A DNA stretch of 43,021 bases from Anaerolineae bacterium (lineage in GTDB: Bacteria; Chloroflexota; Anaerolineae; JACIWR01): NCBI GenBank assembly GCA_014360845.1, contig JACIWR010000003.1, forward strand, positions 1 to 43,021, read 5' to 3'. The position numbers were made by a program, and so were the translations under genes. This document shows, in pieces, positions 3,375 through 42,194 of this stretch; positions within the stretch are counted from its first letter, which is position 1, and the number at the start of each line of letters is the position of its first letter. The notes beneath the pieces are model-generated. The model was not told the DNA's origin. It saw only the letters and a program-made list of their open reading frames with translations, and did not search any database.

Positions 3375-3377
3375 GGT

Positions 3378-5327
3378 TTATTGACACTCCACATGTACAT
3401 AACCAAGGCGTACAGCCCCCTCTTGACCGTTAACATTGCGTACCGCCAGACGGCTTCCATCCGACAAGCGATATAGTCCCACTGTGACTTGATAGCGCCC
3501 CGGTGCCATGTCATCCGGCAACGATAGCACCCGCCGGTCGAGCACTTCCCGGCCCACCGCCCACACGCTGGTGGGAGCCAGGCCATTCTGCGGGATACCA
3601 TCATTCTGGGCCAGAGGCGGAGCGCCCGGCAGGCCCAGGTGGACAAAGGCGTTATACTCTTCGTCCAGGGGAGTCAGAGCACGCCAGCGCAGTGGTAAGG
3701 CCATCACTTCGCCAGGGTGGAGATGGGCATCCACCACAGGGTAGCGCAGCTCCACCCACCCACCAAAGTAAGCTGTCCCCTCCTCTGGCCCGACACCCGG
3801 CGTCTGGAAGTGCGGAGCCAGATACAAAGCCAGGTGGTGACGCCCGTACCAGTTGCTCTCCACCTTATACGCCTCGGCCTCCAGCCAGGAAGCAGAAAGG
3901 TTATGAGCATCTTCCGCCGCTATGCGATAGCTGAGCAGCCAGAGTCTGGGATGGGTAGCGAAGATGCTCTCCAACTCCGGGCCTACGGTTTGGGGGGTGA
4001 AGTAGGCCCGGTAGAAACTGAGCTGGTGCTGGGGATAGTAACTGAGCAGGTAACCCACCTGCCAGACGTAAACGTAGACGAGAGCATCGTCGGGTTGGGC
4101 CAAGGCGCTGAGATGAGCCATAGCCGGTCGCGGGTCTTCCAGTTCATCAACTGCTGCGGTGTAGACGCGCCCCAGCGCGGGAATCCACAGGACGATGACC
4201 ACGAGCAGCAGAACCAGCATGGCGGCCTTGGGCCCCCGCCGCCCCAGAGCCTCCAACCCACGAGCCATCAGCAAATAGAAAACCGGTCCCAAATACAGCA
4301 GAAAACGGGGGAAGAAAAAGGGGTAAGCTCTCTGCAAAAAATACGCAGCCGTCAGGGGTATGACGACCCAGGTGAGGAGAAAGGCCCGGCGCTCACCCGT
4401 CAAAACACCAACCACAGCCAAAGCCGTCATGGCACTGCTGGCTATCAAAACGCCGTAGCTCTCATCCCCTGTCCCCCAGCAGAACTCGCCCAGCACCCGG
4501 CTGAGATAGGCCCACCACGATAGGGCCTCCCCCCGCGACAAGCCCATCACCCCGCGCACGGTGGTGCCGAACACGATGAGCGTCCACGGCAGAAGAAGCA
4601 AAGCCACCGCTCCCACCGCCAGAGTCCATTGTCCCAGATGCGCGAGCGCACGATGGCGCACCGGGCTCCTGCGGATCAAGGACAAACCCTCGCATCCCAG
4701 CAGCCACACACCCTGCCACACCACCAGCAGACCCAGATAGTAATGCGCGCCGATGGCCGCCGCCGTACTCAGGACGTAAAGGACCCACCAGCAAATAGCC
4801 TCACTACGCGAAGGTTGCCCGCTGTTGAAATATCCCGTTCCTCGCCCCCAGGCGTAGACGGACAGCAATCCGCAAACCGTGGCCCACACATAACCCTTAG
4901 CTTCGCGGGAGTAGTACACCTGCATCGGCGACAGAGCGACGAGTAGCGCGACCAGCAAAGCCGTGCGCCTGCTCCCCAGCCAGCGACCCACCATCCCGGT
5001 GAGAGCCACCACCAACACCCCCAACCCCACCGAGAGAAAGCGCAGAGCAAAGGGAGAACTGCCGCCCAGTTCCTTCCACACCCCCAAGGCCAGGCGATAG
5101 ACCGGCGGGTCAGTGTCATTGGTGGTGCGCGTCTCGCTGACCAGGTCCGACAAGCTCTGGTGAGCAAAGTACACGCTATTGCCCTCATCCCACCATAAAG
5201 GACGGTGGTCCAGTTGCAACACCCGCAGGGCAAAGGCCATCAACAGAATGAGCAACAGGATCACCGTCCACCGGTTGTCTCGCTTCAACTCCACCCCCAC
5301 GGTCCACTCCCGCTCAGGCTTGGACAC
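3378..5327 (-). CDS. GT39/ArnT-like (PMT_2 type) membrane glycosyltransferase.
   Basis: 649-aa ORF with a GTG start. It has an N-terminal TM helix followed by LWWDEGNSVYFA (DE motif in the first loop), about 10 further TM helices, and a C-terminal soluble domain homologous to those of the 1..696 and 711..3374 products. Confidence 0.7.
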   Translation of the reverse strand: MSKPEREWTVGVELKRDNRWTVILLLILLMAFALRVLQLDHRPLWWDEGNSVYFAHQSLSDLVSETRTTNDTDPPVYRLALGVWKELGGSSPFALRFLSVGLGVLVVALTGMVGRWLGSRRTALLVALLVALSPMQVYYSREAKGYVWATVCGLLSVYAWGRGTGYFNSGQPSRSEAICWWVLYVLSTAAAIGAHYYLGLLVVWQGVWLLGCEGLSLIRRSPVRHRALAHLGQWTLAVGAVALLLLPWTLIVFGTTVRGVMGLSRGEALSWWAYLSRVLGEFCWGTGDESYGVLIASSAMTALAVVGVLTGERRAFLLTWVVIPLTAAYFLQRAYPFFFPRFLLYLGPVFYLLMARGLEALGRRGPKAAMLVLLLVVIVLWIPALGRVYTAAVDELEDPRPAMAHLSALAQPDDALVYVYVWQVGYLLSYYPQHQLSFYRAYFTPQTVGPELESIFATHPRLWLLSYRIAAEDAHNLSASWLEAEAYKVESNWYGRHHLALYLAPHFQTPGVGPEEGTAYFGGWVELRYPVVDAHLHPGEVMALPLRWRALTPLDEEYNAFVHLGLPGAPPLAQNDGIPQNGLAPTSVWAVGREVLDRRVLSLPDDMAPGRYQVTVGLYRLSDGSRLAVRNVNGQEGAVRLGYVHVECQ

Positions 5328-11700: not shown

Positions 11701-12188
11701 ATACCGGTGAACACGGCCTCGGCCACAGCATTGTAAAGGGTATTGCTCTTCCACAAGGCGACATCGCGGTCCACCCGCTCCGTGACGTCCTCGATCACGG
11801 TGATGGTGCCGATGATGCGCCCATCCTCAACCAGCGGAGCAATGCGTGCGCTCTGAGCCATCAGCTTCCGGTCGGCGCTGAAATCCGAGGACATCGGCAG
11901 AAGATAGCGATGGAAGAGTTGCGACAACACCCGCACCTGCCCCTTCAGGGCATCGCGATAATAGCGGTCCAACCCACGGCTGACGAGCTCCGGGTATACC
12001 TCCAGCAAATTGCGCCCCACGACCTCGCTCGCCCGGTAGCCCGTGTGGACCTCCAGCCAGCGATTCCAGCCGCGGATGTTCAGCTCGGCATCCGTAATCA
12101 GCAAACCCTGGTCAGCAAAATCGTTCAACCATCGCAGTGTTGCTGTTGCGTAATCCGTCATAGCCCTTACCTCTACCATCCTGTTCAT
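5730..12188 (-). CDS. Hybrid sensor histidine kinase with 5 PAS, 5 GAF, HisKA, HATPase_c, 2 receiver and Hpt domains.
   Basis: 2152 aa. PAS modules each end in a DITERK(Q/R)AEEAL-like junction. GAF modules end in ENARL(F/Y)EE. H-box is [15 protein letters not shown]-box is [21 protein letters not shown]. Receivers are [21 protein letters not shown] and [22 protein letters not shown]. Hpt motif is [14 protein letters not shown]. The ATG overlaps the CheC stop (ATGA). Confidence 0.95.
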
Positions 12189-12826
12189 GAACTACCTGTA
12201 CCGGCCGGCTCTCCCTCCTGAGTGCTGGCCCAATTCTCAATAGCCTGCATCAAACGCTCCAGCGAGGTGACCCCCAAGACGATGATAAGATACCCCGCCA
12301 CCGCGCTCTCACTCAAATGAAAATCCATACGAACAACCAGCGCATAGCACAATTCTTCTTCGCCAATCACCAGCGAAGAGAGCAGAGTCTCCAAATCCTC
12401 CTGATGCACGCGCGGCACCGAAAAGGACACCGTCACTTGGAGCAGGTTGCCAAACATGCCCAGGCAAGCGTTGAGCACAATGTTGCCCACCTCGGCCAGC
12501 ACTTCCCGCCCCGAGGCCGCCAGCGGTTGTACGACCACACGCCCCTGCAGCAATAGCTGCACCAGGTGAGCCGCACTTTCGTAATCCAGCACCAACAGCG
12601 CATCGCCAGCCATAGGGCCGGTGAAAATCTGATGCACCGTGGCCAATTCATCGCAGGTCAAACCACACAAGGCATCCCGCATCCCATCTATGGGACGTAT
12701 GTCCACCTGGGGCGTACCAAGAATCACTCGCTGTCCGGTCAAATCTGAAAGCGAGGCCGCAGTGCGCCCGAAGGCGATATTGACCAGTTCCGTCAAGGCG
12801 TCCTTTTGTCGTTCAGTTATCAGCAT
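12185..12826 (-). CDS. cheC: CheC-family CheY-P phosphatase.
   Basis: Both CheC active-site motifs (D/S-x3-E-x2-N-x22-P) can be counted exactly: D-ALT-E-LV-N-(22 aa)-P and E-VLA-E-VG-N-(22 aa)-P. I place the start at the internal ATG (MLITERQKD), overlapping the cheY stop by 14 nt. The listed ORF start at 12880 lies inside cheY. Confidence 0.8.
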
Positions 12827-13190
12827 CTTCCACCTCGCTGAGTATACTGCTGACCACGTTCCGCACCTGCTCACCGGCAAAGGGCTTGGTGATGTAGCCC
12901 CTCGCGCCAGCGGCCTCCACCATGGCCCGGGTCGAGTTCTGGATGTCCGCCGTGGCGATGATCACCCGCGCTTCTTGATCCATCTCGCGCAGTTTTCTCA
13001 GGACCTCCAGGCCATACATCCCGCTCATGGTCAAGTCCAGCAGAACCAAATCAGGCTGGTGCAGAGCATACAACTCCAGCGCCGTCAGGCCCTCGGGCGC
13101 TTCAATGATTTGGTGTCCCAACGGTTCCAACGCCTGGCGCAACATGCGCCGCGATAAACTGGAATCATCTACAATCAGGATTTTAGCCAC
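12813..13190 (-). CDS. cheY: Single-domain CheY-like response regulator.
   Basis: 125 aa. Motifs KILIVDDS, DLVLLDLTMSGMYG and ATADI..YITKPF. GTG start preceded by GGGAGGAG. Confidence 0.9.
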   Translation of the reverse strand: MAKILIVDDSSLSRRMLRQALEPLGHQIIEAPEGLTALELYALHQPDLVLLDLTMSGMYGLEVLRKLREMDQEARVIIATADIQNSTRAMVEAAGARGYITKPFAGEQVRNVVSSILSEVEDADN

Positions 13191-13244
13191 ACCACTCCTC
13201 CCATAAGTTCAATTAAGCGGCCTGGTCAGCCGCCGAACCAACCG

Positions 13245-14051
13245 TTATCGCATTCGCTCATCTACGTCCTCCTCAGCCGGGCTCGGGTCATCGCGCCCGC
13301 GCTCCGGAGGCCGCAAGAATTTAATCTGAAGGTCCCGAAAGCAGACGCTGGACCCATCCCAGGCGCGCAATCCGACCCCGCCATGGGTGTATTCGCTGTG
13401 CTGCGCCTGGAGTACGACCTCGCCATCCACATAGGCGGTGAAAGTGTTGCCCTCTACGCGGAGGCGGATTTCCCGCTCCGCACCGTGCCATTCATAGTCG
13501 TTCGCCGCCCAGGCCCTGGCAAAAGGAGACTGTTCATTACCATTCACGATCCGCCGATACAGGAAAGCCCCTTTGCCGTAGCCGGGATCGTACTGGAAGA
13601 CATAGGCGTTGGCCCTCTCGTAATTCGTAGCTCGGAAGTAAACTCCGTAGCCGTTACCCTGGGTCAGCAGAGCTTTGAAGGTAATCTCGTAGTCGGTCCA
13701 GTTCTCCGCACCGTAGAAGCTGCGCTGTTCCCCTCCCGGTCCGGTGCAGTAACTATCCCCCTCCACACGCCACTTCTTTCCGGCGACTACCTGCCATCCA
13801 CTCCAATCAGCGGGCTGCGGAGTGGGCGTCGGGGTCGGGGTAGGGGTGAGGCTAACCGCCGTGGCTTGAGAACCGGGCGAGGCCCACTGACTGGCGGGTA
13901 ATTCCCCCTGCAATGCACTGTAAACATGTCCAATGCTTGGCCCCACGGCATAGGCCGTCCCGCCCACCACCACCCCCACCAGGAGGATGATCAGCGCGTA
14001 TTCCACCAGGCCCTGACCCGACTGCGATTGCCATTCTGTCCCTTTCATCAT
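13245..14051 (-). CDS. Flp-type (type IVb) prepilin-like N-terminus fused through a PT linker to a DUF1080/LamG-like jelly-roll domain.
   Basis: N-terminus is SGQGLVEYALIILLVGVVVGG (G/xxxxEY Flp motif plus hydrophobic helix). Linker is TPTPTPTPTPQP. The C-terminal ~185 aa read W..W.V..G..W.VEGD..NWTDYEI.F...NGYGVYFRA..VFQYDP..GVGLRAW..V.F.DLQI. ATG at 14051 is preceded by AAAGGAG. The listed start at 14060 is GTG. Confidence 0.7.
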   Translation of the reverse strand: MMKGTEWQSQSGQGLVEYALIILLVGVVVGGTAYAVGPSIGHVYSALQGELPASQWASPGSQATAVSLTPTPTPTPTPQPADWSGWQVVAGKKWRVEGDSYCTGPGGEQRSFYGAENWTDYEITFKALLTQGNGYGVYFRATNYERANAYVFQYDPGYGKGAFLYRRIVNGNEQSPFARAWAANDYEWHGAEREIRLRVEGNTFTAYVDGEVVLQAQHSEYTHGGVGLRAWDGSSVCFRDLQIKFLRPPERGRDDPSPAEEDVDERMR

Positions 14052-31053: not shown

Positions 31054-32229
31054 CTACTCCAGGGCATTCGCCACCAGGGTAATCAGGTCGCGCACTGGCA
31101 TTTCAATCTCCGCGCCCAACCTGGGATCGTCCATGGCGCACAAGAAATGAATCTGGCACTTGGCGCAGGCCGTGACCAGCATCTCGGCGCCGGTGGCCCG
31201 TGCCTCCCGCAGGCGTTCCACCTGGATAGCCTTGCTCGTCGCGCCGCAGTTCGTCCATCCGCTGGTGCCGCAACAAGTGGAGGTTTTGCCCGCGTGTGCC
31301 ATCTCCACTATCTCGATGCCCAGGGCCCGCAGAAGCTGGCGTGGGGCATCGTACACGTGCATGTAGCGTCCCAGCCGGCATGGGTCCTGGTAGGTGGCGG
31401 ATGGTGAATGGTGGGTGGCAGATGGCGGATGGCGGGTGGCAGATAGCAGATGGCGAATGGCGGATAGCAGGTCACTGGCGGACAGTAACTCGGCGATGTG
31501 CAGCACTTCCATGCCGGTATTGCCCACGAAGGCCGGGTAGTCCACTTTGAGGGTGTAGGCACATTCCGGACAGGAGGTGACGATGCGTCGGGCTCCGGTG
31601 CTCCGCAGCAGTTCCAGGTTCAGTTCGGCCAGGTGGCGGAAGGTGTTCACGTCGCCTTGCCACAGCAAGTCGTGACCGCAGCAGCGTTCGTCGGCCAGGA
31701 CGGCGGGTACGATGTCCAGCGCGTTGAGCACGCGCACCGCAGCGCGGGCGATGTCCACGCCCTGGAAGCCCTGTCGGCGGAAAAGCACGTCATAATACGG
31801 CAGACAACCCACCCAGTACACCGTATCCGAGGTAGGTGAGACCTGCAGGTCCCCCATCAACCAGTCCAGCCGGTTCTGCTTCAGCGCCGGATCGGCCATC
31901 ATGCGCATCCAGGTGTGGATGGTATCGCCGTGAGTGCACGCGCCCTGGTGGCCGATCTCGCGAGCCAGGATGCGCAGCTCGCGAGTGAACTCGGAGTAGT
32001 GCACATCCGAGGGGCAGATTTCGCTGCACCGTCGGCAGGTGAGGCAGGCCCAGGCCAAAGGGCTTTCCAGGACAGCATGAGCACGTCCGGCAACCACCTC
32101 TTCCACAATCCGGCGCGGCGAAAACCCGCTGTCCTGTCGCGCCACGGGACACGTCGCCGTGCATTTACCGCATTCCAGGCAATAGTAAGCCCGGTGGCGG
32201 GTGATTGTTTGTTTGATAGGGTCTGGCAA
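31054..32229 (-). CDS. HdrD-like Fe-S oxidoreductase: a fused HdrC-type 2x[4Fe-4S] domain plus two HdrB-type CCG domains.
   Basis: Motifs CLECGKCTATCPV, CLTCRRCSEICPS, CCGHDL, YQDPCRLGRY and CCGTSGW. I place the start at TTG 32229, which lies 8 nt after AGGAG and 11 nt after the mvhD stop. The listed ORF start at 32535 would overlap all of mvhD. Confidence 0.75.
   Translation of the reverse strand: MPDPIKQTITRHRAYYCLECGKCTATCPVARQDSGFSPRRIVEEVVAGRAHAVLESPLAWACLTCRRCSEICPSDVHYSEFTRELRILAREIGHQGACTHGDTIHTWMRMMADPALKQNRLDWLMGDLQVSPTSDTVYWVGCLPYYDVLFRRQGFQGVDIARAAVRVLNALDIVPAVLADERCCGHDLLWQGDVNTFRHLAELNLELLRSTGARRIVTSCPECAYTLKVDYPAFVGNTGMEVLHIAELLSASDLLSAIRHLLSATRHPPSATHHSPSATYQDPCRLGRYMHVYDAPRQLLRALGIEIVEMAHAGKTSTCCGTSGWTNCGATSKAIQVERLREARATGAEMLVTACAKCQIHFLCAMDDPRLGAEIEMPVRDLITLVANALE
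31389..31472. repeat. 12 tandem heptamers (consensus GGCRGAT on the plus strand) inside the hdrD-like coding sequence.
   Basis: Units read ggtaggt ggcggat ggtgaat ggtgggt ggcagat ggcggat ggcgggt ggcagat agcagat ggcgaat ggcggat agcaggt. That is 84 nt or 28 codons, and it encodes LLSAIRHLLSATRHPPSATHHSPSAT. Confidence 0.85.
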
Positions 32230-32240
32230 TGTGCGATCTC

Positions 32241-32657
32241 CTAATGGGATGGCGGAAGAGTGGAAGGTTGGAAGGAGCACAACTGCTCGATGAACGCTGT
32301 CACTTTCTCCACAAAGGCGTGCCCATCGCCGACATCCAGCCAATCCAGGCGCAATCGCTCCTCGGCGATACCCAGCAAATGCGCCAGCGCCCGTGCCTCG
32401 GCAAAGACTTCTTCCGCGTGGCGGTTTCCGAAGCCGTAGTGACATTCGCCCGGCGGGCAACCCAGCAGAAGCACGCTGTCGGCCCCCTGCTCGAATGCCT
32501 TGAGGATCAGCCCCGGATGCAGGCGGCCCAGACACATCACCTTGACCGCATACACGCCGGCCGGATAGCTCAAACCCTCGACGCCCGCCGCCTCCAAACT
32601 GCTATACGCATTCCAGTTACAGGTGAACACAATAACCCGTGTTTCCGTTTTTTCCAT
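32241..32657 (-). CDS. mvhD: MvhD-like protein (methyl-viologen-reducing hydrogenase delta-subunit family [2Fe-2S] protein).
   Basis: Reads VIVFTCNWNAYSSLEAAG..VKVMCLGRLHP..LLLGCPPGECHYGFGN. The ATG at 32657 is preceded by GGAAGGTG. The last ~8 codons lie in octamer repeats at 32252-32275. Confidence 0.8.
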   Translation of the reverse strand: MEKTETRVIVFTCNWNAYSSLEAAGVEGLSYPAGVYAVKVMCLGRLHPGLILKAFEQGADSVLLLGCPPGECHYGFGNRHAEEVFAEARALAHLLGIAEERLRLDWLDVGDGHAFVEKVTAFIEQLCSFQPSTLPPSH

Positions 32658-32712
32658 CACCTTCCGTCCTCGGGTCGCCCGCGCAGATGAAACCCAGCAA
32701 TCAGGCCTTATC

Positions 32713-33333
32713 TCAGTCGTCAAAGCAAGTCAGCATTACCACCGTATAGTCGTCGTTTACGCTGAACGCCAGCATAACGTTGGCACGTTCCTCTTCACGC
32801 ACAAAATCTAAAACAACGGCGGGGCCCCCGAACAAACCTGCCTCACTATACTGACGCTTATACAACTGCCAGCCCAGTACTGCCATTTGTTCCTGGTAAT
32901 AAGCCTCTACGTCTTCCACCATAGCCTCAACCGCATAAACATAGCTGAAGCCAGCAGGCCGCCCCTCGATAGCCCCCGGCATGACAGGCAATCCTTCCCA
33001 TGAGGGCACAGGCGTTCCCATGGTATCTGATTGACCGCTTACAGTAGACGTAGGCTCTGGCAGTGTGGCGGTCGGGGCTATTACCGATGGCGTCGGAGTG
33101 TCCACCGGCAATTGAGTCGCGGTGGGGAGTGGTGTCGCAGTAGGAAGGGGTGTCGTGGTGGGGAGTGGTGTCACGGTAGGAAGCGGTGTTTTAGTGGATT
33201 CTGGTGTTGCGGTAGGTGTTGATGTCTCAATTGCCGTCGTCGCGGTGGTGATAGACGATACCTGGAAAGATGAATCACAGGACGACAACACAATAACGCA
33301 AAAAATCATCACGGCAAACAAGCCTCGCTGCAT
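32713..33333 (-). CDS. Lipoprotein with a PT-rich linker and a small C-terminal domain of unknown function.
   Basis: Lipobox VIVLSSCDSS. The linker is TPTATPESTKTPLPTVTPLPTTTPLPTATPLPTAT. It is embedded between the hdrL-like gene and mvhD. Confidence 0.6.
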   Translation of the reverse strand: MQRGLFAVMIFCVIVLSSCDSSFQVSSITTATTAIETSTPTATPESTKTPLPTVTPLPTTTPLPTATPLPTATQLPVDTPTPSVIAPTATLPEPTSTVSGQSDTMGTPVPSWEGLPVMPGAIEGRPAGFSYVYAVEAMVEDVEAYYQEQMAVLGWQLYKRQYSEAGLFGGPAVVLDFVREEERANVMLAFSVNDDYTVVMLTCFDD

Positions 33334-33430
33334 TGGATGTCCTCCTTTAGCTAAGAGTCCCTCAATTACTCATCCAAATAAGCGGTCACACATCAAACGC
33401 CCCCAAAATGCTATTCGTCCTCCCCGCTCC

Positions 33431-33480
33431 ATCCGTTCAATCCGTTCCATCCGCTTAATCCGCTGACTAATCCGCTGACA
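33431..33480. repeat. Tandem nonamer-type repeat (ATCCGYTYA) spanning the hdrL-like stop codon.
   Basis: The atccg motif recurs at 33431, 33440, 33449, 33458 and 33470. The last unit supplies the final codons (..LSAD) and sits beside the TAG at 33467-33469. Confidence 0.7.
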
Positions 33481-36400
33481 ATACCGCCTTTAGCATAGCC
33501 TCGATTTGTGCATCCGTCGAGTAACCGGCCACGATAGCGCCCGACGGGCAATGCGCCGCGCAGGTCCCGCACCCGGTACAGGCCGCCGCATTGACCACGG
33601 CATGCCACCCTCCTGCCGCCGTCTGCCGCACGGCGATGGCTCCGAACTCGCACAGCGATTCACAAGTGCCGCACGCCCGGCAGCGCACCGCCTCCACCTG
33701 GGCCACGTTGCCGTCCGCCCCCCGCCGGCTGCGCCCCAGCAGGGCCATCACCTGGGCCGCAACCGCCGCGCCGGACTTCTCCGTTTCCTGCTCTGGAGAA
33801 CAGACGAAGAGGCCCGGTCGTCGGCCCGCCAGCCCCCCTAGATCAAAAACCCGTTCCCAGGGCGCGAAATCGGTAGCGCTGGCGGGAGCAAGCACTATCA
33901 CCGCGGCGGACACGGTACGCGACGCGTCATTGTATCCCAGGGTCACGGTGTAATCGCCCAGGGAACCCCGCGCCTCGACTGGTTGACTCGCCTCGCGTAT
34001 CACAGCCACGCCCTGGCGAGCGAGAAGTCCGGCGCAGGTCTCGGCGGCCTGGCCCCGCCCCCACACCAGCACCGGCCCCGTCACAGGCTCTACCACTCGA
34101 CGGCGCGCATCCGGTTCCCGCAGCCTGGCAACCGCCGCCGCTATCAAGCGCCGCGCCTTGGCCGTGGCTCGCGCCGCATCGTCGGCGTGCACCCAGGCGC
34201 ACTGTTCACGGATGTTCACCAGCTCTATGCGTGCCGGGATTTGCTGGCCGCCGTCCGCCAACACCCCCAAATGCGTCCGGCATCGCACCCGCTGTGACGT
34301 GCACCCGTAGCAGACCTGATCCAGCGTACAGCACGAGCAGGCGGCCAGGACCACGCCGTCCAACCCGTGGACTCTCACCGCAGCGGCTATCGTCTCCGCC
34401 CCTTCTGCCTGGCAGGCAAAATCCAGAGGGGCAGCGTAGACCACGCCTGGCCAGTGAGTCGCCTGGGCCACCACCGTGGAGACGTCCACCACGTCGGCGA
34501 TCTCGCTCCCGCATTTGCAGACGAAGACCCCGATGCGGATGGCGAAGGGCGGATGGCGGATAGCAAGTGGCAGACGGCGAGTGGCGGATGGGGTGGGGAG
34601 GACCTCTAGAGCAACGCCCAAATCGGCCATGACCCGCGCGGCCACCGCCGAAGCGCCCACCACATCGTCAGCCGCCACGTGATACACGCGATCATCGCCG
34701 CCGGTCACCTGCCCCTCACCCACGAGGACAACCGCTCCCACGTCCAGAGTGGCCGTCTCCTCGCGCATGGCGTGGTCAATCGCCCGCGGCTGGCAGACCT
34801 TCTCGCAGGCCAGGCACTCGGCGCAAGGACCGCAGCTCAGACAGCGACTGGCCTCGGCCAAGGCCGTCGCCTCGTCGAAACCCAGCTCCACCTCCGCGTA
34901 CCCGCCAGTCCGCTCCGCCGGGGAGATGGTCGGCATGGGCTGGCGCGGTTTGGGCCCTTTCTCCTCCGGCAGCAGTTCGCGGCGGGCCACCGGCATCGGG
35001 GGCGCTTCCACCGCCAACTCGTCCGGCAATCTGAGGCCGCGCAGGAAAGCGTCCATGGCTCGCGCGGCCCGCTTCCCCTTGCCGATGGCGTCAATCACCG
35101 ACCAGGGCTGGCCGATGGCGTCGCCCGCGGCGAACACGCCCGGCTTGCCGGTCATGTAAGTCACCGGGTCCACAAGCAGATTGCCCTGGCGGGTGACACC
35201 GCACTCACCCAGCGCCTCGCCCAGAAAATCCAGGTCGGGCTGCTGACCGATGGCCGGCACCACCAAATCCACCTCCACGATGAACTCCGAACCGGCGATG
35301 GGCACCGGGCGGCGGCGACCGCTCTCGTCAGGTTCGCCCAATTCCATGCGCACGCACTCCAGCCCCACCACCTGCTCGCTTTCACCTATCACGCGGATGG
35401 GCTGAGTGAGAAATTCGATGGGAATCCCCTCCCGCTCGGCGTCCTCCACCTCGTCGGGGATGGCCGGCATCTCGTCCCGCGAGCGACGATAGAGAACGCG
35501 CACATCGCGCACGCCCTGGCGCAGCAGACAGCGGGCCACATCTATGGCCGTGTTTCCCCCGCCGATAACCGCTGCCCGTCGCACGTGAGGGGGTAAGAGC
35601 TGCCGCAACCGCTCCGGCCACTCCGAATCCGGCAATTGCTGCGCCAGATTGATCGTCCGCAGCAACTCGATCCCCTGCACCACGCCCGGCAGCTCCTCAC
35701 CGGGGATGACCAGATTCCGCGGGCGGTGTGCACCGACGCCCAGGAACACCGCATCGTACTTATCCAGCAAATCATCCACGCTGAGGTCGCCGTCCGGCCC
35801 GATGCGCGTATTGCAGCGTATCTCCACGCCCATCTCCTGGAGGCGCGCCACCTCGCGGCGGATCACCTCTCGGGGCAGCCGATAGGCCGGAATGCCCACA
35901 GCCATCATCCCGCCAACCACCGGCAGCGCCTCGAAGACCGTCACCGCATGCCCGCGCCTGACCAGTTCGTAGGCCACGGTGAGGCCAGAGGGACCGGAGC
36001 CGACGATGGCGACGTGTTTTCCAGTGGAAGGGCGGAAGGGCGGAGGGTTGGAAGGGTGGAAGGGTGGAAGGGTGCAGTCGGCGACGAAGCGCTTCAGGTT
36101 GCGTATGCTCAGCGCCTGGTCCACCTCCGCGCGGCGGCAGTTGGTCTCGCAGGGATGGTGACACACACGGCCCAGGATGCCAGGGAAGGGCACCGCCTCG
36201 TAAATCAAATCCAGGGCCTCGCGATAGCGTCCAGCAGCGATGAGGGCCACGTAGCCCTGTACGTGGATGCCGCCCGGGCAGGCGTCGGTACAGGGGGCGC
36301 GGCCCTGCCTGTCAATCACATAGATATTGGGCACCGAGACACCGGGCAGCTTGTGGATGGCAGTATGTCCCTGGCCCGGCACCACCACCGGGCAGACTTC

Positions 36401-36757
36401 CTCACAATCGCCGCAGGCCGTGCAGCGCTGTGCGTCCACAAAGCGGGGCCAGGAGCGAACCTCAGCGCGCAGGTCGGCCCCCTCCCCCGCCAGGCGAGTG
36501 AGGGTGGTATTCGTCCACACGGTGATACGCGGATGCTTCACCGCCTCCAACCGTAGGCCGGGTTGGTAACTCGTCTTACGGTTCCCGCCGAGAAAAGGCG
36601 AAGGTTCAACTAAATGAACCTGCAACCCGGCGTCCGCCAAATCCAGAGCAGCGCGGAGCCCCGCCGCATCGCTGCCCAGGATCAACACCTCTCGCGCCAA
36701 CCCTCTCCTCCTATCCGCCACCCACCAACCGCCGCCCGTATTCGTACCCCAGCTCAA
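33467..36757 (-). CDS. HdrL-like giant flavo-Fe-S fusion. Order: truncated HdrA-type FAD domain, ferredoxin, GltD/NfnB-type NAD(P)H:FAD module, Fe-S domain, HdrA N-terminal-type domain, 2x[4Fe-4S] ferredoxin.
   Basis: Motifs in order: [21 protein letters not shown]; CTACGDCEEVCP; GILGRVCHHPCETNCRR; HVAIVGSGPSGLTVAYEL..GGMM.GIP.YRLP; AAVIGGGNTAIDVAR; VFAAGDA; CLSCGPCAECLACEKVC; IGVFVCKCGSEIADVVD..VNIREQCAWVH; CRACGTCESLCE..CTGCGTCAAHCP. An alternative start is TTG 36700, which is 6 nt after AGGAGG and 10 nt after the korG stop. Confidence 0.8.
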   Translation of the reverse strand: MSWGTNTGGGWWVADRRRGLAREVLILGSDAAGLRAALDLADAGLQVHLVEPSPFLGGNRKTSYQPGLRLEAVKHPRITVWTNTTLTRLAGEGADLRAEVRSWPRFVDAQRCTACGDCEEVCPVVVPGQGHTAIHKLPGVSVPNIYVIDRQGRAPCTDACPGGIHVQGYVALIAAGRYREALDLIYEAVPFPGILGRVCHHPCETNCRRAEVDQALSIRNLKRFVADCTLPPFHPSNPPPFRPSTGKHVAIVGSGPSGLTVAYELVRRGHAVTVFEALPVVGGMMAVGIPAYRLPREVIRREVARLQEMGVEIRCNTRIGPDGDLSVDDLLDKYDAVFLGVGAHRPRNLVIPGEELPGVVQGIELLRTINLAQQLPDSEWPERLRQLLPPHVRRAAVIGGGNTAIDVARCLLRQGVRDVRVLYRRSRDEMPAIPDEVEDAEREGIPIEFLTQPIRVIGESEQVVGLECVRMELGEPDESGRRRPVPIAGSEFIVEVDLVVPAIGQQPDLDFLGEALGECGVTRQGNLLVDPVTYMTGKPGVFAAGDAIGQPWSVIDAIGKGKRAARAMDAFLRGLRLPDELAVEAPPMPVARRELLPEEKGPKPRQPMPTISPAERTGGYAEVELGFDEATALAEASRCLSCGPCAECLACEKVCQPRAIDHAMREETATLDVGAVVLVGEGQVTGGDDRVYHVAADDVVGASAVAARVMADLGVALEVLPTPSATRRLPLAIRHPPFAIRIGVFVCKCGSEIADVVDVSTVVAQATHWPGVVYAAPLDFACQAEGAETIAAAVRVHGLDGVVLAACSCCTLDQVCYGCTSQRVRCRTHLGVLADGGQQIPARIELVNIREQCAWVHADDAARATAKARRLIAAAVARLREPDARRRVVEPVTGPVLVWGRGQAAETCAGLLARQGVAVIREASQPVEARGSLGDYTVTLGYNDASRTVSAAVIVLAPASATDFAPWERVFDLGGLAGRRPGLFVCSPEQETEKSGAAVAAQVMALLGRSRRGADGNVAQVEAVRCRACGTCESLCEFGAIAVRQTAAGGWHAVVNAAACTGCGTCAAHCPSGAIVAGYSTDAQIEAMLKAVLSAD
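34534..34596. repeat. 9 tandem heptamers of the GGCGGAT family in frame inside the hdrL-like gene.
   Basis: Units read tgcggat ggcgaag ggcggat ggcggat agcaagt ggcagac ggcgagt ggcggat ggggtgg. That is 63 nt or 21 codons. It encodes PTPSATRRLPLAIRHPPFAIR immediately before IGVFVCKCG. Confidence 0.8.
36024..36071. repeat. 6 tandem octamers (GYGGAAGG) in frame inside the hdrL-like gene.
   Basis: Units read gtggaagg gcggaagg gcggaggg ttggaagg gtggaagg gtggaagg. That is 48 nt or 16 codons. It encodes TLPPFHPSNPPPFRPS just before the Rossmann motif GKHVAIVGSGPSG. Confidence 0.85.
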
Positions 36758-37265
36758 AAGCGCGACTGTTGAGCTCCTCCGTGCCCTTAGGCACCGACTC
36801 CAGCACGGCCCGGCGCAAGGCCTCCACCGAGACCACGTCGGTCACGGCGGCGAAGAAACCCAGCATCACCACGTTGGCCACAATCCTGCGCCCCAGCTCC
36901 TCCTCGGCCAGACGAGTGGCAGGAATGGAGAGAACACGCAGACCCGCCGCTTCCTCCCCCAGCTCAACCAGGTCCTCATCTACGAGCAGAACCCCCTCGC
37001 GGTTGAAATCGGGCACGTACTTGCTGTAAGCCCCCTGGGACATCACCACCAGAATGCGCGGGTCCAGAAGATGGGGGTAGTGGATGGGTTCATCGGAGAT
37101 GATAACCTGCGCCGCACAGGCTCCGCCTCGCGATTCCGGCCCGTAGCTCTGGGTGAAAGTGGCGTACTTGCCATCGTGAATGGCCGCCGCCATGCCAACT
37201 ATCTCCCCGCTACGTATGATTCCCTGCCCACCGAAGCCGGCTATACGCACCTCGATTCTGCTCAT
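36711..37265 (-). CDS. korC: 2-oxoacid:ferredoxin oxidoreductase gamma subunit.
   Basis: Starts MSRIEVRIAGFGGQGIIRSGEI, followed by SYGPESRGG. 184 aa. GGAG lies 7 nt upstream of the ATG. The last codons and the stop lie in three heptamer units at 36713-36733. Confidence 0.85.
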   Translation of the reverse strand: MSRIEVRIAGFGGQGIIRSGEIVGMAAAIHDGKYATFTQSYGPESRGGACAAQVIISDEPIHYPHLLDPRILVVMSQGAYSKYVPDFNREGVLLVDEDLVELGEEAAGLRVLSIPATRLAEEELGRRIVANVVMLGFFAAVTDVVSVEALRRAVLESVPKGTEELNSRAFELGYEYGRRLVGGG

Positions 37266-37283
37266 TTCTATGCTCCACTCATC

Positions 37284-37340
37284 AGGTGACAGTCACTTCC
37301 AAAGTGACTGTCACCTGGCTGTCACCTGGCTGTCACCTGG
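37284..37340. repeat. 14-bp perfect hairpin whose right arm is the first of three perfect 11-nt tandem repeats (CTGTCACCTGG).
   Basis: The hairpin is aggtgacagtcact-tccaa-agtgactgtcacct (37284-37316). The ctgtcacctgg copies lie at 37308, 37319 and 37330. The korB stop (37322-37324) is inside copy 2. Confidence 0.85.
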
Positions 37341-38182
37341 CAATCCAGGAACGTCGGCTTCTCGATGTCTATGAACTTGCCCTCGACAATCTCTCCGCCC
37401 AGTTCTATATCCACGCTCTTTGGATCCGCACCATGGCGGATGACACCTTTTTCGTGATAGTACTTCAACGTATCAAGCCCCGTGCGCTGCTTATGTCGCC
37501 GCCCGAAGTTAGTGGGACAAGGGGAGATCACCTCCACAAAGCTGAATCCGCGCTTGGCCAACGCCTCGCCTATGGCTCGCTCCAGGCGGCGCACGTGAAG
37601 CACCGTCCACCGCGCCACGTATACCGCCCCGCTGGCCACCGCCAGATACGGCAGGTTGAAGGGGTGCTCGTAGTTGCCGTAAGGGGTAGTGGTGGTAATG
37701 CTCCCCACCGGCGTCGTGGCCCCGTGTTGACCGCCGGTCATCCCGTAATTGAAATTATTGACGCAGATGACCGTCATGTCTATGTTGCGCCGCGCGGCAT
37801 GGATGAAGTGATTGCCGCCGATAGTCACCAGATCACCATCACCGGAGAAGACCACCACCTTCAGCTCCGGATTGGCCAGCTTGAGCCCCGTGGCGAAGGG
37901 TATCGCCCGCCCGTGCGTGGTGTGGAATGAATCCAGTTGCACGTAGCCCGCCACCCGCCCCGTGCAACCGATGCCGCTGACCACGACCACCTTGTCCAGG
38001 TCCAAACCCGATTTCAGCAGAGCACTGATGAAACAGGTCAGCGCCGTGCCAATCCCGCAGCCCGAACACCAGATGTGCGGCAGCCGCTCCTCACGCAGCA
38101 GAGCATCCATCGGGTGGCGTTCCGGCGAGACGGCCCCCGGTTCCACCGAATTCACCTCCATGTGACCCGTCAGCTCGCTCAT
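37322..38182 (-). CDS. korB: 2-oxoacid:ferredoxin oxidoreductase beta subunit (TPP-binding).
   Basis: Motifs WCSGCGIG, SGIGC and GDGD.. IGGNHFIHAARRNIDMTVICVNN. The internal ATG at 38182 overlaps the korA stop (ATGA). The listed N-terminal extension is G/A/R-rich and lies inside korA. Confidence 0.85.
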   Translation of the reverse strand: MSELTGHMEVNSVEPGAVSPERHPMDALLREERLPHIWCSGCGIGTALTCFISALLKSGLDLDKVVVVSGIGCTGRVAGYVQLDSFHTTHGRAIPFATGLKLANPELKVVVFSGDGDLVTIGGNHFIHAARRNIDMTVICVNNFNYGMTGGQHGATTPVGSITTTTPYGNYEHPFNLPYLAVASGAVYVARWTVLHVRRLERAIGEALAKRGFSFVEVISPCPTNFGRRHKQRTGLDTLKYYHEKGVIRHGADPKSVDIELGGEIVEGKFIDIEKPTFLDCQVTAR

Positions 38183-39336
38183 GTCACTGCCCTCCTGATC
38201 GCCGCCAGCACCTGTTCCGGCTTGTGGATGTCCCCGCCAGGATGGGGCACCAGGTAAACGGGCGCCCGCCCCGCCGCGCAACGCTCCACTTCCAGCGCGA
38301 TCTGCCCCCAGTTTATCTCCGGCACCACGAAGGCCTGCACCCGCTGCGCCAGCTCCCGAATCCTCTCCTCGGCGAAAGGCCACACCGTGATCAAGCGCAG
38401 CATACCCACCCTGATGCCCTCCCGGCGGGCCAATTCCAGGGGCCACATGGCCGCGCGGGCGGCGATGCCATAGGAAACGACCACCACTTCAGCGTCCTCC
38501 AGATACAGTTCCTCCACCTCGATAATCTCGTCTTTGTACAACCGTATCTTGTTCACCAGACGCTGAATCAACGGCCACTGGGCGGAATCATCGTTGGTGG
38601 ATGGATAACCCCGCTCGTCGTGGGTCAGCCCCGTAATGTGGATGCGATAGCCTTCGCCGGCGACGGCCATGGGCGGCACCAGGTCCTCATCGGGCAGATA
38701 AGGCTGATAACCGTCGCCGGGCGGGACCCGGGGCCGACGGCGGGGAACGATTTCCACTTCCTCCAGCGGCGGGATGACCACCTTCTCGGTCATGTGCCCC
38801 ACCTCGGCATCGGTCATAACCAGCACCGGGGTACGGAATCGTTCCGAGAGGTTGAAGGCGCGGATGGTGAGATCGAACAGCTCCTGGGGAGAGCTAGGCG
38901 ATAAAGCGATGATCTCGTAAGGACCGTGCGATCCCCAGCGGGCCTGCATCATGTCCCCCTGCCCCACCAGGGTCGGCAACCCGGTGGAAGGCCCGCCCCG
39001 CTGTACGTTCACCAGCACGCATGGCGTCTCGGTCATAATCCCCAGCCCCAGGTTTTCCATCATCAGGGAAAAGCCCGGCCCCGAGGTGGCGGTCATGGCC
39101 TTGACCCCGGCCCAGGAAGCTCCCAGGACGGCGTTCATGGAGGCCAATTCGTCTTCCATCTGAATGTAAGTACCGCCCACCTGAGGCATACGTTCGGCCA
39201 TGCGCTGGGCGATCTCGGTGGCCGGGGTGATGGGGTAACCGGCGAAGAAGCGGCAACCGGCCACAATGGCCCCTTCCGCACAGGCGATGTCCCCCTGCAT
39301 GAAGAAACTTCCGGTCAGAAGACCCTTCTCGCTCAT
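38179..39336 (-). CDS. korA: 2-oxoacid:ferredoxin oxidoreductase alpha subunit.
   Basis: 385 aa. Reads GDIACAEGAIVAGCRFFAGYPITPATEI..MEDELASMNAVLGASWAG.KAMTATSGPGFSLM. The ATG overlaps the korD stop. Confidence 0.85.
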   Translation of the reverse strand: MSEKGLLTGSFFMQGDIACAEGAIVAGCRFFAGYPITPATEIAQRMAERMPQVGGTYIQMEDELASMNAVLGASWAGVKAMTATSGPGFSLMMENLGLGIMTETPCVLVNVQRGGPSTGLPTLVGQGDMMQARWGSHGPYEIIALSPSSPQELFDLTIRAFNLSERFRTPVLVMTDAEVGHMTEKVVIPPLEEVEIVPRRRPRVPPGDGYQPYLPDEDLVPPMAVAGEGYRIHITGLTHDERGYPSTNDDSAQWPLIQRLVNKIRLYKDEIIEVEELYLEDAEVVVVSYGIAARAAMWPLELARREGIRVGMLRLITVWPFAEERIRELAQRVQAFVVPEINWGQIALEVERCAAGRAPVYLVPHPGGDIHKPEQVLAAIRRAVT

Positions 39337-39608
39337 AAAGCCCCCACCTCCCGCTCTTCCTCCACCCGGTAGATGGCGAACTCAGGACAGAGCATCTCAC
39401 AAAGCCCGCAACTCACACATGCCGTTTCATTCACAACACGAGGTGGATGGTACCCCTTGGAGTTGAACTCGTCCGACACTTCCAGCACCTGACGGGGGCA
39501 GAAAGCTACACACCACCCGCAACCTTTACAGCGCTCACGGATGATGTAAATCCGTCCATGGGGTACGCGGATGGACGCCAAATCTAGCGGTTTTCTCCAG
39601 TACTTCAC
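39333..39608 (-). CDS. korD: 2-oxoacid:ferredoxin oxidoreductase delta subunit (2x[4Fe-4S] ferredoxin).
   Basis: Motifs CKGCGWCVAFCP and CVSCGLCEMLCP. GTG at 39608 lies 6 nt after GGGAGAG. The listed GTG at 39656 sits inside the heptamer repeat. Confidence 0.75.
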   Translation of the reverse strand: MKYWRKPLDLASIRVPHGRIYIIRERCKGCGWCVAFCPRQVLEVSDEFNSKGYHPPRVVNETACVSCGLCEMLCPEFAIYRVEEEREVGAL

Positions 39609-39646
39609 TGTACTCTCCCGTTGCGCGAAGCGTGACCCAGTCACCC

Positions 39647-39702
39647 CACGCTTCACGCTTCACGTTTCCCGTTTCACGCCTTACGTTTTACGCCTCACGC
39701 CC
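39647..39702. repeat. 8 tandem heptamers (CACGCTT family) filling the sucD-korD spacer.
   Basis: Units read cacgctt cacgctt cacgttt cccgttt cacgcct tacgttt tacgcct cacgccc. The repeat ends 2 nt from the sucD stop. Confidence 0.85.
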
Positions 39703-39704
39703 CA

Positions 39705-40571
39705 TCAACCAAGCTCCCGAATCAACTCCGGTATCTCGTCGGGCCGGCTGGCGACGCGCACTCCCACTTTCTCAAAAGCAGCGATCTTCTCCGCGGCAGT
39801 ACCGGTGCCTCCCTCGATAATCGCTCCCGCGTGTCCCATGCGCTTGCCCGGCGGTGCGGTCCGTCCGGCGATGAAGGCCACCACTGGCTTGCTCATCTCC
39901 GCGGCGATGAACTCCGCCGCCCGCTCCTCGTCCGTGCCCCCTATTTCGCCGATGAGCACCACGTAATCGGTCAGCGGGTCATCCTCAAAGAGAGCCAGGA
40001 TGTCCACGAAAGTGCTGCCGATAACGGGATCGCCGCCAATGCCCACCGCCGTGGATTGGCCCAGCCCGGCCATGGTCAGAGCGTGCACCACCTCGTAGGT
40101 CAACGTGCCACTGCGCGAGACTACACCCACCGGCCCCGGGATATGGATGTGTCCGGGCATAATGCCTACCTTGGCCTCTCCGGGCGTAATCACCCCCGGA
40201 CAGTTGGGCCCGATGAGCCGCGTGCCCTTGGCCTGCAAATACGCCTTGACGCGCACCATGTCCAGCACGGGAATGCCCTCGGTGATGCACACCACCAACT
40301 CAATGCCCGCATCCGCGGCCTCATACATGGCATCTGGGGCGAAACGGGCCGGCACGTAAATGATGGCCGTGTTGGGACCGGTGGCAGCTACGGCCTCCCG
40401 CACAGTGTCGAACACGGGCACGCCAGCCACCCACTCCCCGCCTTTACCCGGGGTGACTCCGGCCACCACCTGCGTGCCATACTCCAACATCTGGCGGGTG
40501 TGAAACTGGCCTTCACGGCCTGTGATACCTTGCACCAAAAGACGTGTATCCTTATCAACCAGAATGCTCAT
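39705..40571 (-). CDS. sucD: Succinyl-CoA synthetase alpha subunit.
   Basis: Reads [24 protein letters not shown], followed by [15 protein letters not shown] and MGHAGAII. Confidence 0.95.
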
Positions 40572-40618
40572 TGGCTCTCTCCTGTGATGTGGTGTAGGAC
40601 AACTCTTGAGGAGTTGTC

Positions 40619-41026
40619 TTACAGACGCTCTCGGATTCGCGCCGCGATCTCCTGCAGGACCGAGAAGTCCGTCCGCTGCACCTGGGGCGGCAGTCGCAGC
40701 TCGTCGCCGAACCAGCGGGGAATGATATGCACATGAAAGTGAAACACGCTCTGGAAAGCGGCTCTTTCACTGGATTGGAACAGATTCATCCCGTCGGGGC
40801 GCAAAGCCTCGCGCACGGCACGAGCCACGCGCACCGTGGTGCGCATCACCGCCGCCGCCGATTCGGGATCAATGTCGTACAGATTGCGATAGTGTTCTTT
40901 GGGCACCACCAGGACATGCCCCTGGCTCACCGGGTTAATGTCCATGAAAGCCAGGGTCTCCTCGTCCTCCCAAACCACAGCCGCCGGCGCTTTCCCGGCC
41001 ACAATGGCGCAGAAAATGCAGCTCAT
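40619..41026 (-). CDS. HIT-family (histidine triad) nucleotide hydrolase/transferase.
   Basis: Reads [13 protein letters not shown], followed by [10 protein letters not shown] and HFHVHIIPR. Confidence 0.9.
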
Positions 41027-41029
41027 CGC

Positions 41030-42172
41030 TTACGCCATCCTCCCCTGAGCCAGGGCCACCGCCTTCTGCGCGGCCTCGGCCAAAGTCTCCGCCGTGACCA
41101 TATCCGCTCCGGCCAGAAGGGCCCGCCCCTCTTCCTCGTTAGTGCCCACCAGACGGGCCACCATAGGCACCTGCGGCTTGACCTCCTCCAGAGCTGCCAG
41201 GATGCCTCTGGCCACCTCATCACAGCGGGTAATCCCGCCAAAGATGTTGAACAGCACTGCTTTGACATTCTCATCGGAAAGAATGATGCGCAAGGCCGCG
41301 GCTACTTTCTCGGCCTTGGCCCCGCCGCCGATGTCCAGGAAATTGGCCGGCGCGCCGCCGTACAACTTGGTGAGGTCCATCGTGGCCATGGCCAGCCCCG
41401 CCCCGTTGACCATACACCCAATCTCCCCATCCAGCCGCACGTAACTCAGGCCAAAGAGACGCGCCTCCTGCTCGTAGGGGTCCTCCTCGGCCAAATCGCG
41501 CAACTCGGCCAAGTCGGGATGGCGGAAAAGGGCATTGTCGTCAATGATCATCTTGCCATCCAGGGCCAATAACTCCCCCGCGGCGGTGATGACCAGCGGA
41601 TTGATCTCCGCCAGGGTAGCATCAGAGCCGAGGAAAGCAGCGTACAGGCCCCGGGCAATGCGGACGAAATCGCGTAGATAGGCGCGGCTCAATCCGATAC
41701 CGAAGGCCAGCTCGCGGGCCTGATATTCCCGCAGGCCGAGGAAGGGGTCCACCGTTACCTTCACAATGCGCTCCGGTGTGAGACGAGCCACCTCTTCGAT
41801 GTCCACACCGCCCTCACTGGAGGCCATCATCACCGGGCGACCAGCGGCGCGGTCAATGACCACGCCCAGATAAATCTCCTGGACGATGTCCGCCGCCTCG
41901 TCCACCAGGACCTTGCCCACCGTCAGGCCCTTGATCTCCATGCCCAAAATGCGCTCGGCCATGACCTCGGCCTCGGCGGGGTCGCGGGCCAAAAGAATAC
42001 CACCAGCCTTACCCCGCCCTCCGACCAGCACCTGGGCTTTGATCACCACCGGCTTGCCCAGACGGTCGGCGATCTGGCGCGCTTCCTCGGCGGAACGGGC
42101 CACGTCGCCCTGGGGGATAGGGACGCCATACTCGGCAAAGATTCGTTTAGATTGGTATTCGTGTAACCTCAT
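41030..42172 (-). CDS. sucC: Succinyl-CoA synthetase beta subunit (ADP-forming).
   Basis: Reads [18 protein letters not shown], followed by [31 protein letters not shown] and [13 protein letters not shown]. The ATG at 42172 is preceded by GAAGGAG. Confidence 0.95.
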
Positions 42173-42194
42173 CACTCGCTCCTTCTTCAAGGCA

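Follow-up and report, generated by a model that had tools for sequence, protein, structure and literature searches.

Heptamer and octamer repeat arrays read in frame as inter-domain linkers of an HdrL-like protein from an oil-reservoir Anaerolineae bacterium

The hdrL-like Gene and Its Two Repeat Tracts

The DNA described here (hereafter the window) is a metagenome-derived stretch of 43 kb from an oil-reservoir Anaerolineae bacterium, and the present work concerns a hdrL-like gene on its minus strand, in which two tandem arrays with units of 7 and 8 nucleotides (nt) are read in frame between domains of the encoded protein. In their head-to-tail arrangement beyond chance and in their variation in copy number between relatives, the two tracts are prokaryotic long simple sequence repeats (SSRs; unit 5–11 nt). 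The gene and its tracts are located as follows:

33467..36700, minus strand: hdrL-like gene, 1077 amino acids (aa) in database entry P0002, TTG start at 36700
36024..36071, minus strand: octamer array of 6 units (48 nt), CCTTCCRC-type, in linker 1; recognized by Tandem Repeats Finder (TRF), shuffles, Pfam borders and a structural model
34534..34596, minus strand: worn heptamer array of 9 units (63 nt), CCATYCG family, in linker 2; recognized by TRF, shuffles, alignment with HdrA and the same model

The open frame of the gene continues to 36757, which corresponds to 1096 aa from a TTG (list of open reading frames, ORFs, and translation). According to matches in Pfam and PDB, the product combines FAD/Fe-S parts of HdrA type with an NAD(P)H module of NfnB/GltD type that is inserted between them. 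The Pfam matches comprise the start of a FAD-binding domain (residues 23–60), a 4Fe-4S motif (residues 103–124), the DPD/GltD-type Fe-S domain Fer4_20 (residues 153–228), the pyridine-nucleotide-disulphide oxidoreductase domain Pyr_redox_2 (residues 248–561) and a C-terminal two-cluster ferredoxin (residues 1025–1075). Residues 153–655 match NfnB/GltD-type chains of known structure (viz. 9bov_A, 3e-125; NfnA 9n5u_A; 4ylf_B; 5jca_L; and 2vdc_G), and residues 741–1090 match methanogen HdrA. The gene stands in an operon with the order sucC, HIT, sucD, korDABG, hdrL, lipoprotein, mvhD and hdrD. By its predicted domain organization, and with mvhD after the gene, the protein is HdrL-like, viz. an HdrA/glutamate-synthase-type fusion in the sense of an earlier report (PMC2702500). 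We also observed that the HdrA-aligned part, past its N-terminal domain, has a degenerate FAD glycine motif at residues ~895–915 (LVWGRGQAA vs. VIGGGVAG in 5odc_A), and that the intact GxGxxG of the protein lies at the N-terminus (residues 24–33); this HdrL therefore seems to have been assembled from a split or duplicated HdrA scaffold.

The octamer units of linker 1 read, on the coding strand, CACCCTTC (three times), CAACCCTC and CGCCCTTC (twice), and they encode the in-frame peptide TLPPFHPSNPPPFRPS; TRF reports a period of 8 with 6.4 copies and 86% matches. This peptide occupies residues 229–244, between Fer4_20, which ends at residue 228, and Pyr_redox_2, which starts at residue 248, and it joins the Fe-S N-domain to the Rossmann fold within the NfnB/GltD-type module. 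In an AlphaFold2 model for which 68 homologs were used (mean predicted local distance difference test score, pLDDT, of 77), residues 228–247 form a coil with a block pLDDT of 61–76. Measured from D227 to V249, the linker has 21 aa in the window, within a family range of 17–61 and close to the median of 24 among the 68 aligned homologs. The corresponding connection of 9bov_A in the PDB alignment (RFVGDIDL--LDDGYIPPIKPKTGKKVAIVG, vs. RFVADCTLPPFHPSNPPPFRPSTGKHVAIVG in the window HdrL) differs by only 2 aa, and the last two octamers encode the PPxxPxTGK stretch that is conserved in solved NfnB/GltD-type structures. Because linker 1 aligns with the intra-module connection of these solved chains, it is, as judged from the alignment, the normal connection between the Fe-S and FAD domains that is also present in unfused NfnB/GltD proteins, and not a fusion joint. 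A native CCCTTCCGCCCTTCC-like sequence could have provided the seed for the octamer array.

The nine heptamers of linker 2 are, on the coding strand, CCCCACC, CCATCCG, CCACTCG, CCGTCTG, CCACTTG, CTATCCG, CCATCCG, CCCTTCG and CCATCCG; three of the nine are perfect CCATCCG, and the others carry 1–3 mismatches. We refer to this array as worn because TRF (34535–34591, period 7, 8.1 copies) finds only 64% matches. It spans codons 721–741, in the middle of the gene, and encodes the peptide PTPSATRRLPLAIRHPPFAIR directly before IGVFVCKCG. In the AlphaFold2 model residues 718–736 are coil (pLDDT <50), between a helix that ends at residue 713 and a strand at residues 742–747. Linker 2 joins a C-terminal extension of the NfnB/GltD-type module to the HdrA N-terminal-type domain (RIGVFVCKCG). 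The PDB alignment with HdrA begins at R741 (RIGVFVC), which corresponds to residue 5 of 5odc_A, and on this basis linker 2 precedes the HdrA N-terminus and is taken to mark a genuine old joint. The distance from L713 to R741 is 27 aa in the window compared to exactly 20 aa in most of the 68 aligned homologs, and the excess of 7 aa (TRRLPLA) equals 21 nt, or 3 heptamers.

Searches of the window with 3-unit patterns (at most 3 mismatches) returned 10 heptamer and 5 octamer matches, where 100 dinucleotide-preserving shuffles gave an expectation of 0.00. A preliminary description of this DNA had placed a 9-unit heptamer tract and a 6-unit octamer tract in frame at domain boundaries, and the sequence, TRF, the shuffles and Pfam all bear this out. 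Its view that the tracts encode inter-domain linkers likewise agrees with the coil predicted at both sites, with the Pfam and PDB borders and with the unchanged tracts in metatranscriptome contigs that are described below. The accompanying suggestion that the tracts lie at former gene boundaries holds for linker 2, at the old HdrA joint, and fails for linker 1, which is internal to NfnB/GltD modules.

The Tracts in Metatranscriptome Contigs and in Other Samples

A contig of the metatranscriptome run X2 (record 4) spans positions 34300–34666 with 0 differences and has the linker-2 tract intact, and a contig of the metatranscriptome run X7 (record 23) spans positions 35539–36102, likewise with 0 differences and with the linker-1 tract intact; for such RNA-run contigs, DNA carry-over in the RNA libraries is possible. 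The tracts are also intact in DNA contigs of the four other oil-field runs X1, X4/X5, X6, and X8, which belong to different studies, and no copy-number polymorphism between samples was found in the contigs of six runs, contigs being records in which rare length variants are hidden, since such variants are dropped during assembly. One RNA-run contig that is 12 nt shorter belongs to a diverged relative (22 substitutions). No splicing of the tracts and no on/off switching is seen in the contigs, and the tracts are apparently retained in the transcript, both being unchanged in contigs of the two metatranscriptome runs.

These data bear on two alternative explanations. Short repeats are prone to mis-assembly and the source of the window is a metagenome, which raises the question of an assembly or sequencing artefact; however, the same sequence was obtained independently from several runs of different studies and from two RNA runs with 0 differences, and orthologous arrays occur in the contigs of seven relatives, and we regard the probability of an artefact as negligible. 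A second explanation is that the tracts form a contingency locus, in which slippage of the non-triplet repeats by one unit switches HdrL off and on (phase variation). Neither a 7-nt nor an 8-nt unit is divisible by three, hence a one-unit change shifts the frame, and the contigs of sample X3 break at both tracts. On the other hand, slippage is lowered by the interruptions and wear of the arrays, the DNA contigs and RNA runs listed above all have the same alleles, and the frame is kept through both tracts in all of the intact relative genes that were aligned across them (P0003–P0008). Moreover, HdrL is a core energy-metabolism enzyme encoded in an operon, and not the product of a surface or restriction gene, and both tracts are located in mid-gene rather than near the 5' end. 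A role in phase variation is thus highly improbable.

Comparison of the Linkers in Related Species

The close relatives available for comparison consist of seven contigs (L001–L004 and L125–L127), in which HdrL is 72–88% identical to that of the window. The number of octamer units in linker 1 ranges from ~2–4 degenerate CCTTCC-type units (L002, L003, L126, and L127) through 6 in the window to 12 in L001, where the linker has PSFQPSIP repeated with a 24-nt super-period. Linker 2 has ~5–6 heptamers (20 aa) in L001, L125, L126, and L127 and 9 in the window, and shows little periodicity in L002. The units themselves differ as well, with CCATCCG in the window vs. CCATTCG/CTATTCG in L001, L126, and L127. 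The differences in both copy number and unit variant among relatives with such similar proteins point to a turnover of the arrays long after the fusion that gave rise to HdrL, and the lineage-wise homogenization of the units indicates, on this sequence comparison, concerted evolution or ongoing array turnover.

At least 66 full-length homologs with 48–54% identity have the same domain order as the window HdrL. Two of the distant homologs (~53% identity), L128 and L129, share the sucCD-kor-hdrL-mvhD-hdrD synteny, and it is for these two that the connectors were examined at the DNA level. Both connectors are present, with similar lengths, in 68 of the 68 aligned proteins; in the distant homologs both linkers have a high content of Pro and Ala, to which Glu is added in the first and Arg in the second, and in most of these homologs the connectors are non-repetitive. 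In L129 neither connector contains a DNA repeat. In linker 1 of L128 (hdrL at 10001–13258) a different heptamer family is present, TCCAATC, which encodes the peptide YPISNLSS, and 4.3 copies of the same unit are found at 15938–15967 of L128 inside a neighboring HdrA-like gene, directly before VMIQCVGARDE. Since a different unit occupies linker 1 of L128, the linker sites are, as judged from these alignments, repeatedly permissive, each lineage having its own unit. A comparable replacement is seen in HdrD, where L002 and L003 have a different 7-mer (AATTGYG) at the site of the heptamer-bearing loop of the window protein.

The preliminary description had proposed that intergenic repeat DNA was captured when separate genes fused, i.e., that the arrays are former spacer repeats which became trapped as linkers upon the joining of hdrA-, gltD-, and hdrA-type genes. 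The exact position of linker 2 at the mapped HdrA N-terminus (residue 5 of 5odc_A at R741) is in keeping with this proposal, and spacer arrays of the operon can indeed turn coding: an octamer array behind mvhD (CTTCCAAY) is non-coding, after a TGA, in the mvhD-hdrD spacers of L002 and L003 and is read as the C-terminal tail of MvhD in the window, L001, and L126, the change in status being due to the different position of the stop codon. In addition, the L130 contig joins korG to hdrL through a heptamer-bearing junction. This last case, an in-frame korG-hdrL fusion by a 17-nt junction deletion (2505–4754; P0120), was set aside, as a 31-nt frameshifting deletion follows further on and the contig may have been badly assembled or come from a copy in decay. 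However, the ~53%-identity homologs have the fusion, the two connectors and the synteny in common with the window, mostly with non-repetitive connectors and in L129 with none that are repetitive, and linkers equivalent in length and position are thus found where the repeats are absent. Linker 1 is, furthermore, an intra-module connection that occurs in unfused NfnB/GltD proteins, and since perfect units remain and the arrays differ among close relatives, the arrays are far younger than the fusion. Capture at the fusion is accordingly very unlikely. On these alignments spacer repeats do become coding at the gene ends of the operon, and the linkers of HdrL do not appear to have become so at the fusion.

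Repeat Arrays across the Operon and Beyond

Matches to the heptamer family in the window are confined to hdrL and the HdrD-like gene, and those to the octamer family to hdrL and the 3' end of mvhD; in the remaining 31 kb the pattern search found no array of either family. The genes and additional arrays of the operon are located as follows:

31054..32229, minus strand: hdrD-like gene, 391 aa, with Pfam CCG domain (TRF, pattern search, Pfam)
32241..32657, minus strand: mvhD, FlpD family, 138 aa (pattern match, translation, relatives)
33424..33479, minus strand: 9/12-mer array of AGCGGATTA-type, GTCAGCGGATTA twice and then AGCGGATGG/AACGGATTG units (TRF, sequence)
37308..37341, minus strand: korB/korG junction, perfect 11-mer x3.1 (GCCAGGTGACA) (TRF, frame test)
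39647..39701, minus strand: sucD-korD spacer, GCGTGAA x7.7, a different heptamer family (TRF, frame test)

The array of the hdrD-like gene (31388–31472) consists of ~12 heptamer-family units and encodes a loop that directly precedes TYQDPC, a motif of the second CCG domain; by eye this loop exceeds those of the L001–L003 HdrD proteins by 14 aa (42 nt, 6 units). Every frame of the heptamer array yields the same 7-aa period, which explains the look-alike peptides of HdrL (PxA[IT]R..) and HdrD (SA[IT]RH..). The final codons of mvhD (32252–32275) hold three octamer-family units (CCTTCCAA CCTTCCAC TCTTCCGC) that encode the tail SFQPSTLPPSH. At the end of hdrL, the stop codon of the gene falls within the array at 33424–33479 (a perfect 12-mer twice, followed by 9-mers), which also takes up the spacer downstream. 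The core of this array, CGGATKR, corresponds to the heptamer of linker 2 in complement orientation, and the C-termini of HdrL in relatives vary with this array (VLSAD, VLSAERSADVAD, VLSADVAD, and MLSTDETDLTDLDESVR). The GCGTGAA and 11-mer spacer arrays have stops in all three sense frames, whereas the in-gene tracts are open in all three, and ideal arrays of CCATCCG, CCATTCG, and CACCCTTC contain no stops in any of the six frames.

The statement that the same families occur nearby, both in genes and in non-coding spacers, is in part upheld: they are present in the hdrD-like gene and mvhD, whereas the spacers of the window hold mostly other repeat families than the hdrL heptamer and octamer, the heptamer being represented by a single GGCGGAT unit at the korG stop, the TAG of which lies inside a GGCGGAT-AG unit (window positions 36711–36719). 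In relatives, the spacers do carry them, with (CGGATGG)n at the korG/hdrL junction of L002, where (CGGATGG)2-CGGATAG at the korG stop (~5870–5900) is the linker-2 heptamer reversed, and with the octamers of the mvhD-hdrD spacers of L002 and L003.

Several further features of the operon were observed. Non-triplet tandem arrays are concentrated in the kor/hdr operon (31054–42190): this region makes up 26% of the window and contains five of the eight TRF arrays that have a period of 7, 8, 11, 13, or 14 (binomial p ~0.03), and a like concentration is present in L001. The sucD-korD spacer of L001 (2718–2825) has a GCGTAAA-type array followed by inverted TCACGCT x8.9, of the same family as the GCGTGAA array of the window. 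Between hdrL and mvhD lies a lipoprotein-like ORF of 206 aa (32713–33333) which has a signal peptide with Cys, no Pfam match, and a TPLPTA repeat linker with an 18/36-nt period at 33116–33216. This ORF is present in L003 and absent from L001 and L002, where mvhD adjoins hdrL directly, and it is therefore an insertion into the operon.

Outside the window, many phyla are represented among the more than 120 stretches with CCATYCG tandem arrays, and 17 of the 80 listed belong to the Chloroflexota. A set of 125 such tracts, taken from 120 stretches of public genomes, includes 58 that are situated in open frames with a length of 200 aa or more; the unit counts modulo 3 (12/20/26 inside such frames vs. 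16/32/19 outside) are uninformative, since the tracts have fuzzy ends and spurious long frames occur in DNA of high G+C content. When eight of these frames were compared with Pfam, the tract fell within a conserved domain in only one of them (DUF2298), and two others have recognizable domains elsewhere in the frame. We also noted that several unrelated genomes (L005, L036, L046, L063, and L107) carry forward and reverse CCATYCG arrays ~70–200 nt apart, and such pairs of an array and its reverse complement would be expected to form long hairpins.

The recurrence of units raises the possibility of a dispersed repeat family that is specific to the lineage, similar to the short tandemly repeated repetitive (STRR) heptamers of cyanobacteria or to GGGAATC of Xanthomonas, copies of which an active or templated process would seed at many sites. 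Such a family might have a role at the DNA or RNA level, e.g., through a G-quadruplex on the template strand, protein binding or transcript processing, with translation as a side effect. In favor of this explanation, a distance of 6 kb includes several sites with the same unit families, another contig of the source sample has, at equal depth, one more array of the CCATYCG family (44 nt), two Hdr sites of another lineage (L128) carry a heptamer family peculiar to it, and published dispersed heptamer families are located, as here, near stop codons between co-directional genes (PMC4692102). The G-rich plus strand of the octamer tract also fits the canonical G3N1-7 x4 quadruplex motif. Against it, the remaining 31 kb of the window are devoid of arrays of the two families, and the two hdrL tracts are gene-internal and not intergenic near gene ends, where the neighboring arrays of other families do sit. 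A quadruplex role appears improbable: the motif in the octamer tract is unremarkable, being one of 7 in the 43-kb window, and the heptamer tract, whose unit lacks a G3 run, has no such motif. The idea that the hdrL and hdrD arrays are copies of each other was rejected, as they show no higher-order match (unit-order shuffle p = 0.42; longest common words of 13 and 10 nt). Overall, we consider a dispersed family to be an unlikely source of the tracts.

A broader version of this idea would hold that a clade within the Anaerolineae, and perhaps the class, has an active or templated seeding of stop-free arrays of 7–8 nt at many permissive sites, which then move between spacer and coding sequence. 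If true, seeded arrays would represent a standing source of change in linker length, of remodeling of gene ends and of gene fusion in core enzymes, with the MvhD tail and possibly the korG-hdrL fusion as examples. We judge it to be a rather doubtful prospect, a little more so than a dispersed family as such.

Probable Slippage-type Turnover inside Existing Connectors

The observations are probably best explained by a slippage-type birth and turnover of simple sequence repeats inside connectors that pre-existed and were free to vary. According to this explanation, microsatellite-like arrays of 7- and 8-nt units would arise and turn over by replication slippage or unequal exchange within the existing connectors. 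They could persist as these segments are predicted to form unstructured or extended coil with little constraint on sequence, and as the unit families are free of stops in every sense frame and would give peptides rich in Pro, Ser, Ala, and Arg, the native connectors being Pro/Ala-rich also. Only those length changes that keep the frame would be fixed, and for this a step of three units suffices, such as the +21 nt of linker 2. The tract peptides would then serve as passive tethers between folded modules. We infer slippage as the generator from the pattern of copy-number and unit differences, and the tracts would, on the same reasoning, have no function of their own.

A number of observations weigh against this explanation. 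The length of linker 1 differs from that of the nearest relatives by 12 nt (1.5 units) and not by a clean step of three units. The three extra heptamers of linker 2 are its most degenerate ones, so that they were either inserted some time ago or did not arise by simple duplication. Moreover, the operon has several sites with the same unit families: the heptamer is found in hdrL, in hdrD and, in reverse, at the end of korG in L002, and the octamer in hdrL and at the end of mvhD. Independent local slippage does not predict this recurrence, which hints at a spreading process or a motif-specific bias. The wide distribution of CCATYCG arrays among phyla belongs here as well. Lastly, the tracts could be hypermutable, with rare length variants that the contigs hide.

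Significance and Comparison with Known Systems

The comparison of orthologous genes illustrates how the linkers already present in a conserved enzyme of the electron-bifurcation type can be occupied by simple repeats with non-triplet units while the enzyme is left unbroken, and how the same arrays slide between non-coding spacer and coding tail at the ends of genes. These results are relevant for ideas on the evolvability of linkers, and annotators should take such low-complexity segments neither for frameshifts nor for junk ORFs. The understanding of Hdr enzymes is unchanged by them, and they lend no support to a special mechanism of gene fusion.

The HdrL protein of Desulfobacterium autotrophicum HRM2 is a heterodisulfide reductase/glutamate synthase fusion; it is reported to have only weak sequence similarity to other proteins, and two of the three HdrL proteins of this organism are described as selenoproteins (PMC2702500). 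The window protein resembles it in being a large HdrA-type protein with a GltD-like NAD(P)H module, whose gene is followed by mvhD (FlpD family), here with the lipoprotein gene between, and this likeness is one of architecture. No in-frame TGA was seen in the window gene, and its context consists of sucCD-korDABG upstream and hdrD downstream.

Among repeats within coding sequence, the phase-variable contingency loci of Haemophilus and Neisseria are coding repeats of pathogens (PMC2651432). They share with the window tracts the presence of non-triplet units inside an open reading frame, but the arrays of the window are imperfect, lie in the middle of the gene for a core metabolic enzyme, have no length variants in the contigs of six runs, and are in frame in relatives. 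A different comparison is provided by the Pro/Thr-rich linkers of secreted proteins, of which the TPLPTA linker (18 nt) in the lipoprotein ORF of the window (32713–33333) is an example. These are likewise flexible, Pro-rich tethers of variable length; in their case, however, the unit is a multiple of three and equals a peptide unit, whereas the hdrL arrays need three DNA units for each peptide period.

G-rich heptamers in dispersed families have been described as GGGAATC in Xanthomonas, GGGGA(C/T)T in Nostoc, and the tandem heptanucleotides of Calothrix PCC 7601 (PMC4692102). Our comparison with them rests on the window sites (two heptamer and two octamer) and one further contig of the source sample, and within it the likeness lies in a lineage-specific unit that occurs at several sites, between co-directional genes, overlapping stops, and transcribed, and in the fit of one strand of the octamer array to a quadruplex motif. 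The window tracts differ in that they are coding, in that the heptamer unit has no G3 run and in that no preference for four units is seen. A literature search found, among its 15 best-ranked results, no published description of heptanucleotide or STRR arrays in the Chloroflexi or Anaerolineae.

The closest counterpart is the long SSR. Among the long SSRs of prokaryotes, which have units of 5–11 nt, heptamers are over-represented (Mrazek, Guo & Shah 2007, as cited in PMC4692102), and published surveys stress intergenic locations and an under-representation of non-triplet units in ORFs (PMC4692102). The window arrays resemble these in their head-to-tail units of 7–8 nt, in their occurrence in the high-G+C genome of a non-pathogen, and in a copy number that differs between related genomes; they are unlike the published ones, which are mostly intergenic, in being in frame within conserved enzyme genes and translated. 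Hence, the tracts of hdrL are apparently an in-frame, translated and non-switching case of this known kind of repeat, and a fairly ordinary instance of repeat-driven linker evolution.

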